This document shows, piece by piece, positions 107 to 4,718 of a stretch of DNA of 64,000 nt. Made by a program: the position numbers and the translations under genes. The notes below the pieces were generated by a model, which worked only from the letters and a program-made list of their open reading frames with translations, ran no database searches and was not told where the DNA came from. Source of the DNA: Candidatus Atabeyarchaeum deiterrae (GTDB lineage: Archaea > Asgardarchaeota > Atabeyarchaeia > Atabeyarchaeales > Atabeyarchaeaceae). The stretch spans positions 1,632,001 through 1,696,000 of the forward strand of contig CP147780.1 of assembly GCA_037310415.1 (NCBI GenBank). Reading direction: 5' to 3'. Numbering within the stretch: the stretch's first letter is position 1; every line of letters starts with the position of its first letter.

Positions 107-1234
107 TCAATGGACTCGCATGTTTTGAACTTTCATCCATGCATCTCTGCCACTTTTCTCTGGAACGTCGTCTTTGACTTTGACGAGTTTGATCGCATCA
201 TTCGGGCATGCTCTCGCACAGACACCGCATCCAATGCACTGCTCTTTGTTGAAAACGACCTTTTCATCAGATAAGTCGCTCTTGTGCCCGAAGTGGAAGG
301 TCAATGCCTTGAATGGACATATCCTCACGCATGTCTTGCATTTCTTGCACGAGTCATAGTCTAGCTCAGGTTGATAGTTTGATCTGGCGAAGGCCCTCGG
401 ATTCTTCAACTCTGATAGCCCTCTCAGGATTCCACAGCAACACGTGCAACAGTTACAGATGAAGGTAACGTCCTCTTGGCTATTGTTAGTGGTGTGCACA
501 AGACCCTTTTTCTCCGTCAAATCAAGGATCTTCTCCGCTTCAGCCTTATCTATTGGTCTTCCTACTCCAGAGTCAACGGTCCAATCCGCGAATTTGTCAA
601 ATGTCAAGCAGACTTCAACTGGTCTGTCACATCTCTTTCTCTCGGTCCTGCAAGCGCAATTCATAACAGCAATCGAATCAGCCTTCTTGATGTATTCGCT
701 AACTCGCTCGTATGGCAAAACCTCAAGTTGCGGCGAAAAAGTCTTCTCAATGGGAATGACCCTGGCCCAAGGATAATTCGAGGATCCGATCTCAGTACCA
801 TATCCATCAGAGTAGAAGCGGTCAACCCACTTTCCCACCTCTGCCTTCTCGCTCTCGGGATTCCTACGGTCAGCGAAGTAAGCTTCAAAAACCCCGGGAA
901 TCAGAGGAAGCAAAGCAAAGTACTCAGTACCTGTTCTCCTACTCTTACTTCTGTAGATCATGCCCCGCCTTAGTAAGCCATCAAAGACCTTCTTGACCTT
1001 TGCTTTATCTATCCCAGTTGCCTTGGAGAAGTCTTCGACGGTTCTGGAGTCCATGTATGGGATATTGAAGTTTGAGAGCATCTTCGCCTCTTCCTCAGTG
1101 AACATCTTCCTTAAGAACTTCAGTATGTCCTCACCTCGAGGCAAACCGATCGGAAAGTTGTCCATCTTGCGCCGCAGCAATTCGTAAACATCATCACTGC
1201 CCTTAACTGCTCCCAAGAAATAACCACCACACAA
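107..1234 (-). CDS. 4Fe-4S dicluster (ferredoxin) domain protein with N-terminal winged helix
   Basis: Two CxxCxxCxxxCP motifs plus CACR and CNCCTCCC motifs; the true start may be a TTG a few codons downstream. Confidence 0.85.
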   Translation of the reverse strand: MCGGYFLGAVKGSDDVYELLRRKMDNFPIGLPRGEDILKFLRKMFTEEEAKMLSNFNIPYMDSRTVEDFSKATGIDKAKVKKVFDGLLRRGMIYRSKSRRTGTEYFALLPLIPGVFEAYFADRRNPESEKAEVGKWVDRFYSDGYGTEIGSSNYPWARVIPIEKTFSPQLEVLPYERVSEYIKKADSIAVMNCACRTERKRCDRPVEVCLTFDKFADWTVDSGVGRPIDKAEAEKILDLTEKKGLVHTTNNSQEDVTFICNCCTCCCGILRGLSELKNPRAFARSNYQPELDYDSCKKCKTCVRICPFKALTFHFGHKSDLSDEKVVFNKEQCIGCGVCARACPNDAIKLVKVKDDVPEKSGRDAWMKVQNMRVH

Positions 1235-2729: not shown

Positions 2730-2781
2730 GCGTGAACCATTTTAAACCGATTTTGTCGGAGCATTTTAATTTGGTTCACGC
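2730..2781. promoter_or_regulatory. inverted-repeat operator-like element upstream of the peptide gene
   Basis: GCGTGAACCATTTTAAA (2730-2746) and TTTAATTTGGTTCACGC (2765-2781) are 15/17 inverted matches; the left arm is repeated exactly (16 bp) at 4703-4718. Confidence 0.65.
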
Positions 2782-2799
2782 AGGAATAACCTTTCTATG

Positions 2800-2812
2800 A
2801 AAAAGTTTAATA
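2800..2812 (+). promoter_or_regulatory. BRE/TATA promoter of the small peptide gene
   Basis: AAAAAGTTTAATA ~50 nt before ATG 2862; GGAGG at 2846-2850 and AGAGG at 2856-2860. Confidence 0.6.
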
Positions 2813-2861
2813 GACACATTTCTTTAAGACGTACCAGGAAGAACCGGAGGGCAGAAGAGGA

Positions 2862-2999
2862 ATGAAAATAGGCGAATTCTTCATAGAGTACAATAGACTA
2901 CTAGTCATCGGAGCGATTCTAACAATACTACTGATGGCTACGCTTCTAGGCGCGCCTGCGGCTGCATTGCCGACGGCTGGAAGCGGGTCACCGGCATAG
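2862..2999 (+). CDS. small secreted pre-peptide (45 aa), not in the ORF track
   Basis: MKIGEFFIEYNRLLVIGAILTILLMATLLGAPAAALPTAGSGSPA*: SD, promoter, hydrophobic h-region and AxA cleavage motif. Confidence 0.75.
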   Translation: MKIGEFFIEYNRLLVIGAILTILLMATLLGAPAAALPTAGSGSPA

Positions 3000-3133
3000 T
3001 TAGTCTAACCAAGAAGCGATCTCTGTGCAAAGAGCCGTGCGCAGCCTTCGTACGGGACCGTATAGATCTTGTGCTGTCCCCCATATTCTTCTTTTTCGTT
3101 TAGGGTCAATTCCTTAGTTTGCAGACTTCGGCC

Positions 3134-4627
3134 TCAGGGTAATGACTCGTAGCGTCTTAGGAAGTTCAGCTCGCCATCTAGACGGGTCCATTGTTGTCTA
3201 CTATCATTCCACTTTTCATACAAGTGAATAAGGCTTCGTCCTCCAATGTTCTCAAACCTGTTAGAAGAAGCAACAACTGTGATCTCGTTTATTCCTTTTA
3301 TCATGTAGTTGATTTTCGCCGCTTCGCTGGCTGCGGATTTGATAAACAGCAGGACGCCCCTGTCCGTTCTATATAGGAAGTAGTAAGGCAGGTACCCCAC
3401 AGCGTAACGCAGTTCCTCGACTTGCTCTTCATCACACTCAATTAGGTATGCATTCAAGTTGTCAAGGCCAAGGCCCCAATATGTCATGTAAGGATAGATG
3501 GCTGGTTGTTTTTCTCCTCCGCCATTCAATGATTGGTTCTCAGCTGACATAAGCCTGTTAATCTTGCGAGTGACTGTTGGCCTGGATATGCCATAGCCAA
3601 ACTGTGTAAGCCGTTTTTTGATCTCGCTGTGGGAGATCAGCGGGTCGGTTGCACATATTGCGGCGATCAGGAAGTCCTTTCTGTCAAACACAAGTGGCTC
3701 AGCTGAATAGTGAAACTCCGCGGCTTTTCTTGATATCTCCTTGTTCTCTCGTATAAATTCGAAGAAGCCATATGCCCATAGTTGCGGATCGAAAAACCAA
3801 CTTCTGCCATCAAAGAATTCCAAGTTTGAACCTGTTGAGAAAGATTTCAGCTCGACTAGGTTGATATCCCGAAATACTTCACCCTTCAGCTCGTTTAGAC
3901 TTTCCTTGAACTCATTAAGCTCCTTGCTATGGTTAGGTATGACGAAACTTGCCCAACTGCTTCCCTCGTAAACGTCTGAATTCAAATTCAGTGCGAAAGG
4001 CAAGTTGTCGAAGAGTAGTCTCCTTAGATATTCATCCTTTCCTCTGTATTCCTCCAAGATGTTGAAAAAGACTATGAAATGTCTCAACTTGAACATTGGA
4101 TAATTGATGTATCCATAGAACCTCAAAAGGCTTGATTTCTGAAGAGAGTTACTCGCATGGGAGACTGCTTGAGGTGAGAACCCAAGCTGCTTCGCAATTT
4201 CAGTGTACGAACTACCCGGATTCTTCATGAAGGTATCTAAGTACAACTTCTGCTTTGTGCGTATTCTCCTCCCTTCGGGCGCAAGGCAAGTGATGAGCGT
4301 TCTTCGGACTACTTCTGGTTTCGTTATTCTATACTTTCTAATACTGGTTAATCTCGAGATCAAAGCATCTCTAATGTTACGGGTTGCTGGCGCAGTGAAT
4401 GGATCAAAATAAGTGAGGGCCAACCTTTTCGTTAAACTCGGGTCAATCATTATTTGCTCTTGCTTTAGCTTGGGGTTATCACATCTCGCCAGGTAAATTC
4501 TTGTGAGAGCAAAAAGCACCTTAAGTTCTCCGTTTTCAACCTGTGGAAACAGGTTATCATACAAGTTTAGCTGTTGAGATATCGACTCTATTAGGTTTGA
4601 GTCTGTTTGCTCGTACTGTTTGCTCAT
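3134..4627 (-). CDS. large transcriptional regulator with tandem Lrp/AsnC-like HTH + RAM modules
   Basis: HTH SYTEIAKQLGFSPQAVSHASNSL followed by INYPMFKL; second HTH ISHSEIKKRL...ISRPTVTRKINRL. Confidence 0.75.
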   Translation of the reverse strand: MSKQYEQTDSNLIESISQQLNLYDNLFPQVENGELKVLFALTRIYLARCDNPKLKQEQIMIDPSLTKRLALTYFDPFTAPATRNIRDALISRLTSIRKYRITKPEVVRRTLITCLAPEGRRIRTKQKLYLDTFMKNPGSSYTEIAKQLGFSPQAVSHASNSLQKSSLLRFYGYINYPMFKLRHFIVFFNILEEYRGKDEYLRRLLFDNLPFALNLNSDVYEGSSWASFVIPNHSKELNEFKESLNELKGEVFRDINLVELKSFSTGSNLEFFDGRSWFFDPQLWAYGFFEFIRENKEISRKAAEFHYSAEPLVFDRKDFLIAAICATDPLISHSEIKKRLTQFGYGISRPTVTRKINRLMSAENQSLNGGGEKQPAIYPYMTYWGLGLDNLNAYLIECDEEQVEELRYAVGYLPYYFLYRTDRGVLLFIKSAASEAAKINYMIKGINEITVVASSNRFENIGGRSLIHLYEKWNDSRQQWTRLDGELNFLRRYESLP

Positions 4628-4702
4628 CTACCTCACCCCATGCCCACAGGTACAGACTGGACGCTGTGACCTGTACGTGGAGTAACCTTTCTCTCTCCTA
4701 GT

Positions 4703-4718
4703 GTTTAAAATGGTTCAC
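4703..4718 (-). promoter_or_regulatory. operator-like motif upstream of the regulator
   Basis: GTTTAAAATGGTTCAC is the exact reverse complement of 2732-2747. Confidence 0.6.

Follow-up and report, generated by a model that had tools for sequence, protein, structure and literature searches.

The window analyzed here, a stretch of 64,000 nucleotides of the wetland Asgard archaeon Candidatus Atabeyarchaeum deiterrae (contig CP147780.1), carries a compact locus in which a gene for a micro-protein of 45 aa (positions 2862-2999, + strand) converges on the gene for a tandem Lrp/AsnC-like regulator of 497 aa (3134-4627, - strand). The intergenic region between them (3000-3133) holds a T-run on the + strand at about 3085-3100, which is probably the archaeal terminator of the micro-protein gene. 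Upstream of the micro-protein gene lie a Shine-Dalgarno sequence, GGAGGGC (2846-2852, + strand, 9 nt before the ATG), a TATA-like box, TTTAATAG (2806-2813, + strand, about 50 nt 5' of the start codon), that would serve as its promoter, and a predicted operator in the form of a 48-bp palindrome (2732-2779), whose left half-site (2732-2747, + strand) and right half-site (2764-2779, - strand) are separated by 16-17 nt. The promoter of the regulator gene itself also contains a predicted half-site (4703-4718, - strand), which overlaps a TATA-like TTTTAAA and lies 76-91 nt 5' of the ATG. On the far side of the palindrome, and divergent from the micro-protein gene, a conserved BRE/TATA box (2573-2585, - strand) precedes a two-gene unit (1442-2518, - strand) encoding a Ras/Arf-fold-like protein of 176 aa and a protein of 151 aa, a unit whose synteny holds at every locus. 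All four genes (micro-protein, regulator, 17x-aa and 151-aa) in fact keep their order throughout the loci of both clades, and SDR, cupin, FGGY kinase and Fer4 protein genes make up the neighborhood. All TATA and BRE assignments at the locus were made by pattern only; a scan for sigma-70 promoters and intrinsic terminators, models not applicable to archaea, performed at the level of shuffled sequence, and neither Rfam nor a tRNA scan, each applied to three loci, found anything. The small ORF, the regulator and a 16-mer shared by their upstream regions, on which a preliminary description of this DNA was built, are thus all present, in an arrangement that goes beyond chance given that the 16-mer is unique in the genome.

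In terms of its conservation, the small ORF is a genuine gene. It was found in eight distinct orthologous loci, among which the differences at codon positions 1, 2 and 3 number 189, 21 and 345, respectively; substitutions fall mostly at the third position, which argues for purifying selection, and 19 columns of the peptide alignment are invariant. The view that this ORF is real was hence borne out, as was the claim that it has a TATA box and a Shine-Dalgarno sequence of its own, because both the TTAA.A block of the box (identified by pattern) and the Shine-Dalgarno sequence are invariant upstream of the gene in the alignment of the eight loci. One contig from an RNA library (run X1) spans positions 2863-3082, where it ends, and hence the small gene, while a second one (4098-4365) lies within the regulator gene; since DNA can occur in such a library, this is weak evidence of expression. 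Runs X5, X8 and X9 gave no cover of the stretch and are uninformative, as is the lack of cover over the remainder of the stretch in run X1. An identical copy of the peptide is already present in two protein collections. A Pfam search with the 45-aa sequence found no family, a search of the ESM Atlas gave no usable match, and a word-index search retrieved the peptide itself and one orthologue only, which is why the orthologues were collected by six-frame reading of the loci.

The peptide begins with an EFFIEYNR motif, followed by about 17 hydrophobic residues, a G-A-P-A-A-A segment and a G/P-rich tail of 10 aa. This n-h-c layout with a cleavage-like site agrees with what had been described from the first inspection, and the site proved to be invariant as G-x-P-A-x-A: G30, P32 and A33 are fixed, and the -1 residue is small in all eight sequences. 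The most conserved part of the peptide, however, is the presumably cytoplasmic N-terminal motif, EFF[VI]EYNR, and not the tail, which evolves faster (mean identity of 41%, while the core stands at 80% and the regulator at 67%) yet retains a P..G..P pattern followed by a hydrophobic C-terminal residue. The n-region contains two acidic residues and has zero net charge. Lys and Arg flank the hydrophobic stretch on its N side; in the tail, Lys is absent and Arg occurs only once across the eight sequences. By the positive-inside rule, the most likely topology is that of a membrane peptide whose EFF[VI]EYNR end faces the cytoplasm and whose short G/P-rich tail is exposed outside. An invariant G-x-P-A-x-A would be hard to account for, however, if the micro-protein were an uncleaved anchor.

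In its model, the regulator consists of an extra helical domain followed by two wHTH+RAM (Lrp/AsnC) modules fused in tandem, with approximate boundaries at residues 1-120 (N-terminal helical domain), 124-174 (wHTH1), 181-267 (RAM1), 316-383 (wHTH2) and 390-463 (RAM2). Pfam recognizes HTH_24 at residues 130-165 (E 6.7e-8), and this match recurs in 54 of the 85 members of the regulator family. In profile searches against solved structures, positions 111-236 matched PH0061 (E 8.9e-8) over both the HTH and the RAM part, and positions 298-391, which cover the second HTH, matched PH0140 and LrpC. The AF2 model used here has a pLDDT of 86.8 (an earlier one, built from a shallow alignment, reached 52.5 and was set aside), and with it Foldseek returned NirDL as the best hit (E 6.4e-8, 394 columns), followed by PH0061, PH0140 and AsnC, with a probability of 1.00 to many full-length Lrp structures. 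The Pfam RAM model AsnC_trans_reg has no match in the regulator or in the family members searched, and the RAM assignment rests on the fold and on the profile matches to solved structures. These same matches uphold the tandem HTH and Lrp/AsnC-like architecture that had been proposed. No TPR repeats are detected in the regulator by Pfam, and the fold found by Foldseek is that of a tandem Lrp protein, so that a receptor of this kind would be, as already suggested, not homologous to those of the RRNPP family.

The shared 16-mer, GTGAACCATTTTAAAC, occurs exactly at 2732-2747 (+) and 4703-4718 (-), that is, upstream of each gene and in the same orientation relative to transcription, as had been noted; a third copy with three mismatches (2764-2779, -) completes the palindrome. 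The half-site form is GTGAACCAWWTTMAA, with its inverted copy at 16-17 nt, and the palindrome sits 5' of the small gene's TATA box. A search of the 2.757-Mb genome allowing up to two mismatches found the 16-mer in only two places, both at this locus. In a genome-wide weight-matrix scan the three sites scored 25.0 (2732-2747), 23.3 (2764-2779) and 25.0 bits (4703-4718), the next best site in the genome 16.2 bits, and the control with reversed sequence gave 17 matches at 14 bits or above. Across loci the half-sites are invariant while their flanks vary, both halves of the palindrome standing out as invariant blocks in the eight-locus alignment (A4), and each orthologous locus has one or more half-sites at -61 to -105 in the regulator promoter. 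With a footprint at all orthologous loci and no occurrence elsewhere in the genome, this motif behaves like an operator and, being carried by both genes, points to a regulator and its target. Read from sequence, the arrangement is a closed circuit made of an autoregulated factor and a target gene. The distance between the palindrome and the TATA box of the small gene falls into two classes, of about 22 and about 65 nt, which would be unusual for a position-dependent activator.

The small gene, on the other hand, is probably not the sole target of the palindrome, because the latter is rigidly spaced from the promoter of the GTPase-like operon: the distance is 145-147 nt in 12 loci from the two clades. 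This spacer shows little sequence conservation and no conserved ORF, no frame being open in all loci. As the palindrome lies both upstream of the small gene and at 146±1 nt from the divergent unit's promoter, one bound complex probably controls both, and the two-gene GTPase-like unit is a probable second target. A search of the Atlas with the 176-aa protein leads to small GTPases of the Ras/Arf fold, to be taken as a lead only, and Pfam has no match in the two-gene unit.

The small gene adjoins the regulator gene in 13 loci from two related clades. The expectation that regulator homologues would come with an adjacent small signal-peptide ORF holds within one narrow clade but not beyond it: no small hydrophobic ORF is found beside the 27 best family matches from other Asgard families, or beside either of the two regulator paralogues of the same genome (2137274-2140300), which also have no comparable palindrome. 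Adjacency to a peptide gene, typical of RRNPP systems, is therefore not a property of the regulator family. In the sister clade, moreover, the probable homologue (form B, as opposed to form A in the clade of the window) is encoded on the opposite strand, lacks a full hydrophobic core and A-x-A, and is not membrane-spanning. The two forms share a helix core, R-L-x-V-L-x3-L-T-x-L-L, and the C-terminal pattern of the tail, whereas their N-terminal motifs differ; hhalign aligned them with a probability of 74% (E 2.7e-5, 17 columns, 59% identity), and the alignment scores above shuffles (z 4-8). Their homology is hence moderately supported. The form B gene points towards the palindrome and not away from it, so that the palindrome may govern the small gene only in the clade of the window. 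Covariation between tail and regulator gave a correlation of 0.12 over 21 pairs, a sample too small to be read.

Taken together, we consider it reasonably probable, though far from assured, that the locus represents a lineage-restricted regulatory cassette of Atabeyarchaeia-like Asgard archaea, composed of a fused Lrp factor, its predicted sites and a membrane micro-protein. What is established are the genes, the fold and sites that are conserved and genome-unique; we infer DNA binding, the sign of regulation, the topology of the peptide and the ligand. With its two Lrp/AsnC-type modules, preceded by the extra helical domain, the regulator would act as a built-in pseudo-dimer and bind 15-16-bp sites of the half-site form. 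The site on the TATA-like box of its own promoter would most likely mediate autorepression, and the inverted pair, the 48-bp palindrome that precedes the TATA box of a 41-45-codon gene by 22-65 nt, would hold a single complex that probably controls this gene together with the divergent GTPase-like operon. The micro-protein might either stay as a bitopic membrane protein or be cut at G-x-P-A-x-A, and the RAM domains would most likely sense a small ligand, as they do in the rest of the family.

A different role for the peptide was envisioned in the preliminary description, namely a pheromone loop in which the pre-peptide is exported and cut after A-x-A, and the tail of 8-10 aa builds up outside the cell and is re-imported to bind the tandem-Lrp regulator and alter its expression and that of the peptide gene. 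The n-h-c layout with its invariant cleavage-like site, a tail that diverges quickly while keeping a pattern that recurs in form B, and the closed circuit with a genome-unique predicted operator all fit such a loop; the genome also encodes an archaeal signal peptidase I and Opp/Dpp-type binding proteins, and putative signal peptides of the same genome have similarly long n- and h-regions. However, an ordinary signal peptide needs no motif such as EFF[VI]EYNR, nor does an acidic n-region without net charge favor export, and form B, the homologues from other Asgard families and the paralogues depart from this scheme in the ways seen above. RAM pockets, furthermore, bind free amino acids, the regulator is devoid of TPR repeats, and the tails follow relatedness with no abrupt pherotype switches, albeit in a small sample. 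A chain of 45 aa is also finished before its signal leaves the ribosome, and to our knowledge SecA is absent from archaea. Our literature search on archaeal peptide signaling with Lrp found nothing relevant. We therefore regard the pheromone loop as rather unlikely, and its fullest version, in which the form A tail released by signal peptidase would be the ligand of a non-RRNPP tandem-Lrp receptor that switches a small-GTPase-like module, hence the first peptide-based cell-cell or autocrine signaling in archaea, as a little more doubtful still. Complex prediction bears both on this loop and on the idea that the micro-protein is a direct protein partner of the regulator, acting with feedback as a membrane-tethered (form A) or soluble (form B) co- or anti-regulator. 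The full-length peptide and the regulator passed weakly, with 0.33 against 0.00 for the best of three controls, at a contact agreement of at least 52% and a partner pLDDT of at least 41. Of 80 solved complexes 58 cleared the pass mark, as did 2 of 110 mismatched pairs; at scores of 0.60 or less, only 7 of the 80 solved complexes reached it, along with both passing mismatches. That the small gene adjoins the regulator in both clades despite its inversion, and that both forms share the helix core and the C-terminal pattern, would suit a direct partner. Nonetheless, the pass comes without a reported interface, prediction models dock hydrophobic helices easily, the two forms have unlike N-terminal motifs and their homology is itself only moderately supported, and we hold direct partnership to be improbable as well.

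The micro-protein could instead be a membrane anchor or partner of the GTPase-like and 151-aa proteins, with the regulator controlling both from the shared palindrome. The constant order of the four genes, a palindrome flanked by the small gene and the 17x-aa gene and rigidly spaced from the promoter of the latter, and the Ras/Arf-fold leads are consistent with such a function, for which a conserved cytoplasmic motif on a bitopic peptide might provide a docking site. Because form B does not span the membrane, and the GTPase assignment is a lead with no Pfam match, we deem this role quite unlikely. One could also argue that the perfect 16-bp inverted pair, which brackets 1,987 bp with one large gene, marks the termini of a 2-kb mobile element, or that it is a chance repeat and the ORF spurious. 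Purifying selection on the ORF contradicts this reading, and a mobile element with terminal inverted repeats was ruled out by its single copy in the genome, by synteny on both flanks in relatives, by an arrangement of the motif that varies among orthologues and by the Lrp fold of the protein, which is not that of a transposase; we give the whole reading next to no credence.

Micro-proteins and gene regulation are almost unexplored in Asgard archaea, and the cassette proposed here is compact and experimentally tractable: it comprises a single regulator with one unique predicted operator and one 45-codon target, plus a GTPase-like operon at a rigid spacing, and its binding sites, effector and peptide fate are amenable to in vitro work that needs no culture. 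A role of the peptide as a signal, or as a partner of the two GTPase-like-unit proteins, would have implications for how membranes are sensed and organized in the closest relatives of eukaryotes; if it had neither role, the cassette would still offer a clean case of a dedicated regulon under a fused, pseudo-dimeric Lrp factor. Among known systems, the archaeal Lrp/AsnC (FFRP) regulators, with examples such as Ss-LrpB, LrpA, Ptr2, LysM and BarR, resemble the cassette in the wHTH and RAM fold, the AT-centered sites of about 15 bp, the sites in their own promoters (autoregulation), a dedicated target gene nearby and regularly phased multiple sites. The winged HTH (by HTH_24, profile and model) and the RAM domain (by fold and profile) of this family are both found here, but the family's chain of about 140-170 aa, which assembles into homodimers or octamers, is not: two modules and a helical domain of about 120 aa make up one 497-aa chain, the target gene has 45 codons and the Pfam RAM model has no match. 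The best structural match, NirDL, belongs with AhbA-AhbB to the siroheme decarboxylases (PDB 4ch7, 4czd) and is the sole solved fused tandem Lrp/AsnC fold; the regulator, however, shares 10-11% identity with it, has no NirD-type Pfam match and no heme-biosynthesis neighbors, and thus falls outside that family and its pathway context, while the conserved predicted operator in its own promoter points to DNA binding and not to catalysis. The RRNPP pairs of Firmicutes and phages (Rap-Phr, PlcR-PapR, AimR-AimP) are similar in the 40-48 aa size class, the hydrophobic export-like N-terminal segment and the variable short C-terminal tail of the peptide, as well as in a peptide gene placed beside an autoregulated cytoplasmic DNA-binding protein in a closed circuit, which here is read from sequence. 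In contrast to those pairs, this locus has no TPR, its genes are convergent and not co-directional, its pre-peptide has a strongly conserved N-terminus, the sister-clade form carries no export signal, and export, cleavage and re-import would all be putative. Finally, the bacterial small membrane proteins MgrB, AcrZ, MgtS and KdpF are likewise single helices of 30-50 aa, each under a specific transcription factor, although the micro-protein described here bears no sequence relation to them.

Both frames claimed in the preliminary description are present: a 45-aa ORF (2862-2999, +) and, converging on it, a 497-aa regulator (3134-4627, -). The 16-mer GTGAACCATTTTAAAC lies upstream of each, at 2732-2747 (+) and 4703-4718 (-), and is oriented the same way with respect to transcription. 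An additional copy at 2764-2779 (-), which differs at three positions, pairs with the copy before the small gene to form a palindrome. Allowing two mismatches at most, the 16-mer is found at only the first two places in the whole 2.757-Mb single-contig genome, and in a scan with a weight matrix built from 18 sites of orthologous loci the three local sites scored 23-25 bits and the next best 16.2, the reversed-sequence control giving 17 matches at 14 bits or more; the motif is shared by the two genes beyond chance. Upstream of the small gene, all loci with the form seen in the window (form A) read GTGAACCATTTT.AA, 17 nt, then TT.AAT..GGTTCA. At least one good half-site is kept at -61 to -105 upstream of the regulator in every locus, which half is retained differing between loci, and in most it sits on a TTTAAA box that is likely the TATA element. 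A site on a factor's own TATA box is the classic autorepression layout of archaeal Lrp-type regulators, and by this analogy the regulator would repress its own gene. A further shared 14-mer, GGARTAACCTTTCT, occurs near the operator copies at 2783-2796 and 4679-4692, both on the + strand; it falls in unconserved blocks of the eight-locus upstream alignment and may represent a half-site that has degenerated.

The small gene is genuine. When orthologous loci (L-numbers denote loci with regulator homologues) were read in six frames, eight distinct sequences emerged, from the window, L006 (=L020), L007, L008, L009 (=L012, L013), L010, L011 and L015, and in each the gene is located downstream of the regulator, in convergent orientation. 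Pairwise differences across its 29-codon core are 189/21/345 at codon positions 1/2/3, and 19 columns are invariant, comprising E-F-F-x-E-Y-N-R, several helix positions, L-L-G-x-P-A, and a G and a P in the tail. Four invariant islands stand out amid variable sequence in the upstream alignment, namely both half-sites, a TTAA.A box some 50 nt upstream of the start and, 9 nt from the start, CYGGAGGGC; the start codon is TTG in two loci. Contigs from a small wetland metatranscriptome run cover 2863-3082, which is the small ORF and its 3' region as far as a T-run, and 4098-4365, at 99% identity or more, a slight indication of expression given that DNA can occur in an RNA library.

As the preliminary description held, the regulator carries two HTH and Lrp/AsnC-like modules. 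Pfam detects HTH_24 at residues 130-165 only; each half of a profile built from 85 family members finds full-length Lrp/AsnC structures (PH0061 at positions 111-236, E 8.9e-8; PH0140 and LrpC at 298-391). Because these matches agree with an AlphaFold2 model (pLDDT 86.8, deep alignment) and with a Foldseek ranking headed by the fused tandem NirDL (E 6.4e-8 over 394 columns) and followed by a long list of Lrp/AsnC-family members, the protein joins two wHTH+RAM modules in a single chain, preceded by a helical N-terminal domain of about 120 aa. Globally the family is small, with 77 clusters (50% identity) in a set of 1.84 billion representatives, and it is common in the phylum, where 120 of 201 sampled genomes carry it, often in several copies and tandem arrays. 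Outside the window's own genome the best match is a complete Atabeyarchaeia MAG at 62% identity; another close homologue carries the label Njordarchaeum. Two tandem paralogues (31-32% identity) lie in the same genome at C1:2137274-2140300, and some other Asgard genomes hold arrays of up to 8 copies, many of those matches containing a single in-frame stop.

Form A starts with 10-12 n-region residues, two of them basic and two acidic; some 17 hydrophobic residues follow, and then G-[AV]-P-A-x-A (in L008, V-L-A two residues further on). To judge from sequence, this is the layout canonical for signal peptidase I. The n- and h-regions are comparably long in putative signal peptides of large ORFs of this genome, which elsewhere encodes an archaeal signal peptidase I and binding proteins of the Opp/Dpp type. 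Speaking against a simple signal peptide are the invariance of the N-terminal motif, the presence of acidic residues in the n-region, and the form found in a sister clade (form B). The EFF motif is absent from L014, L016, L049, L050 and L051, whose regulators are 56-59% identical, and in all five an ORF of 37-39 codons occupies the place of the small gene on the regulator's strand (L014:5785-5898, L016:4315-4428, L049:2803-2916, L050:2964-3077 and L051:2914-3033, all +), with its own ATTAATA box and GGAGG, mostly a TTG start, and codon-position differences of 65/41/132. Its pattern is M-D-S-x-E-x-D-R-L-R-V-L-G-S-x-L-T-x-L-L-P-T-K-E-G-E-S-K-M, then x-P-x-x-G-x-P, ending in a hydrophobic residue. 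Comparison of its profile with that of form A (probability 74%, E 2.7e-5, 17 columns, 59% identity), local alignment scores above shuffles (z 4-8) and the common tail pattern P..G..P-hydrophobic make form B a probable inverted homologue. Since its hydrophobic residues number only about 13 and it lacks an A-x-A site, form B would not be exportable by Sec, and whatever the two forms have in common is not secretion-dependent; the common tail could be the functional part in both. For form A itself, we consider an uncleaved anchor slightly the likelier outcome and cleavage a close second, neither reaching an even chance.

In a secreted-peptide loop the tail would be the part released. Mean identity is 41% in the tail versus 80% in the core and 67% in the regulator, and between loci with 91% identical regulators the tails share just 50%, a pattern that would fit either a loose tail or a specificity determinant. 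A single prediction of the regulator with the peptide, both entered as alignments, gave weak support, scoring 0.33 against 0.00 for the best of three controls. Of 80 solved complexes 58 reach that mark, and of 110 mismatched pairs 2 do; with a score of 0.60 or below, it is reached by only 7 of the 80 and by both passing mismatches. Runs agreed in at least 52% of contacts with a partner pLDDT of 41 or more, and the output named no interface. This prediction makes both binding readings slightly more probable and is not decisive; we regard the secreted-peptide loop as unlikely, and equally so a micro-protein that acts as direct protein partner of the regulator. That it is instead a partner of the neighbouring GTPase-like pair appears more improbable still.

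This syntenic pair, of 176 aa (1988-2518, -) and 151 aa (1442-1897, -), lies on the other side of the palindrome. Neither protein has a Pfam match; Atlas gave Ras/Arf/Rab-like leads for the 176-aa one from language-model features and structure. From the conserved promoter box of the 176-aa gene, GAAGGCTTTAAAT, to the left half-site the distance is 145-147 nt in 12 of 12 loci of both clades (2573-2747 in the window; also L006-L009, L011, L014-L016 and L049-L051), across a spacer of little sequence conservation in which no frame stays open across loci. As about 146 nt equals 14 helical turns, the spacing suggests same-face coupling or wrapping between bound regulator and the promoter of the 176-aa gene, and on account of it the palindrome is probably not the operator of the small gene alone. 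In the sister clade the small gene is directed towards the palindrome, and there the main target of the palindrome may be the GTPase-like operon. Further along, at 107-1234 (-), a 375-aa protein combines a TrmB/MarR-like HTH (residues 62-105) with a C-terminal 2x[4Fe-4S] ferredoxin domain, and is syntenic in several relatives (L011, L012, L013).

The expectation that regulator homologues would have an adjacent small ORF holds in one narrow lineage and fails outside it, because no related small hydrophobic ORF lies beside the homologues in 27 genomes of other Asgard families or beside the two tandem paralogues of this genome. In those 27, a gene of 350-400 aa, GNAT (Acetyltransf_9) where annotated, stands directly upstream of the best family match; directly downstream, most carry a gene of about 300-330 aa in convergent orientation, and in none is there an unoccupied gap between the regulator and that downstream position. 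In most relatives the position directly upstream of the regulator is taken by a co-directional gene of about 365 aa for a GNAT (Acetyltransf_9), frequently with an SCP2 gene beside it (L011:2623-3720, L014:2743-3840, L015:1138-2253, L016:1160-2257, L017:1243-2340, L018:620-1717, L020:3161-4258); L021-L048, from other Asgard families, have a similar-sized gene there, and a divergent SDR gene replaces it in the window.

Taken together, the reading of regulator, operator and target is well supported and we consider it highly probable, and the fuller statement, that a membrane-inserted product is controlled by a ligand-sensing tandem Lrp factor, is as a whole moderately favoured. RRNPP pairs resemble this arrangement in layout only, their defining receptor feature being absent here. 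With the autoregulated factors of the Lrp/AsnC type it shares the class, and it differs from them in the unusual fused form of the regulator and in its unusual target.
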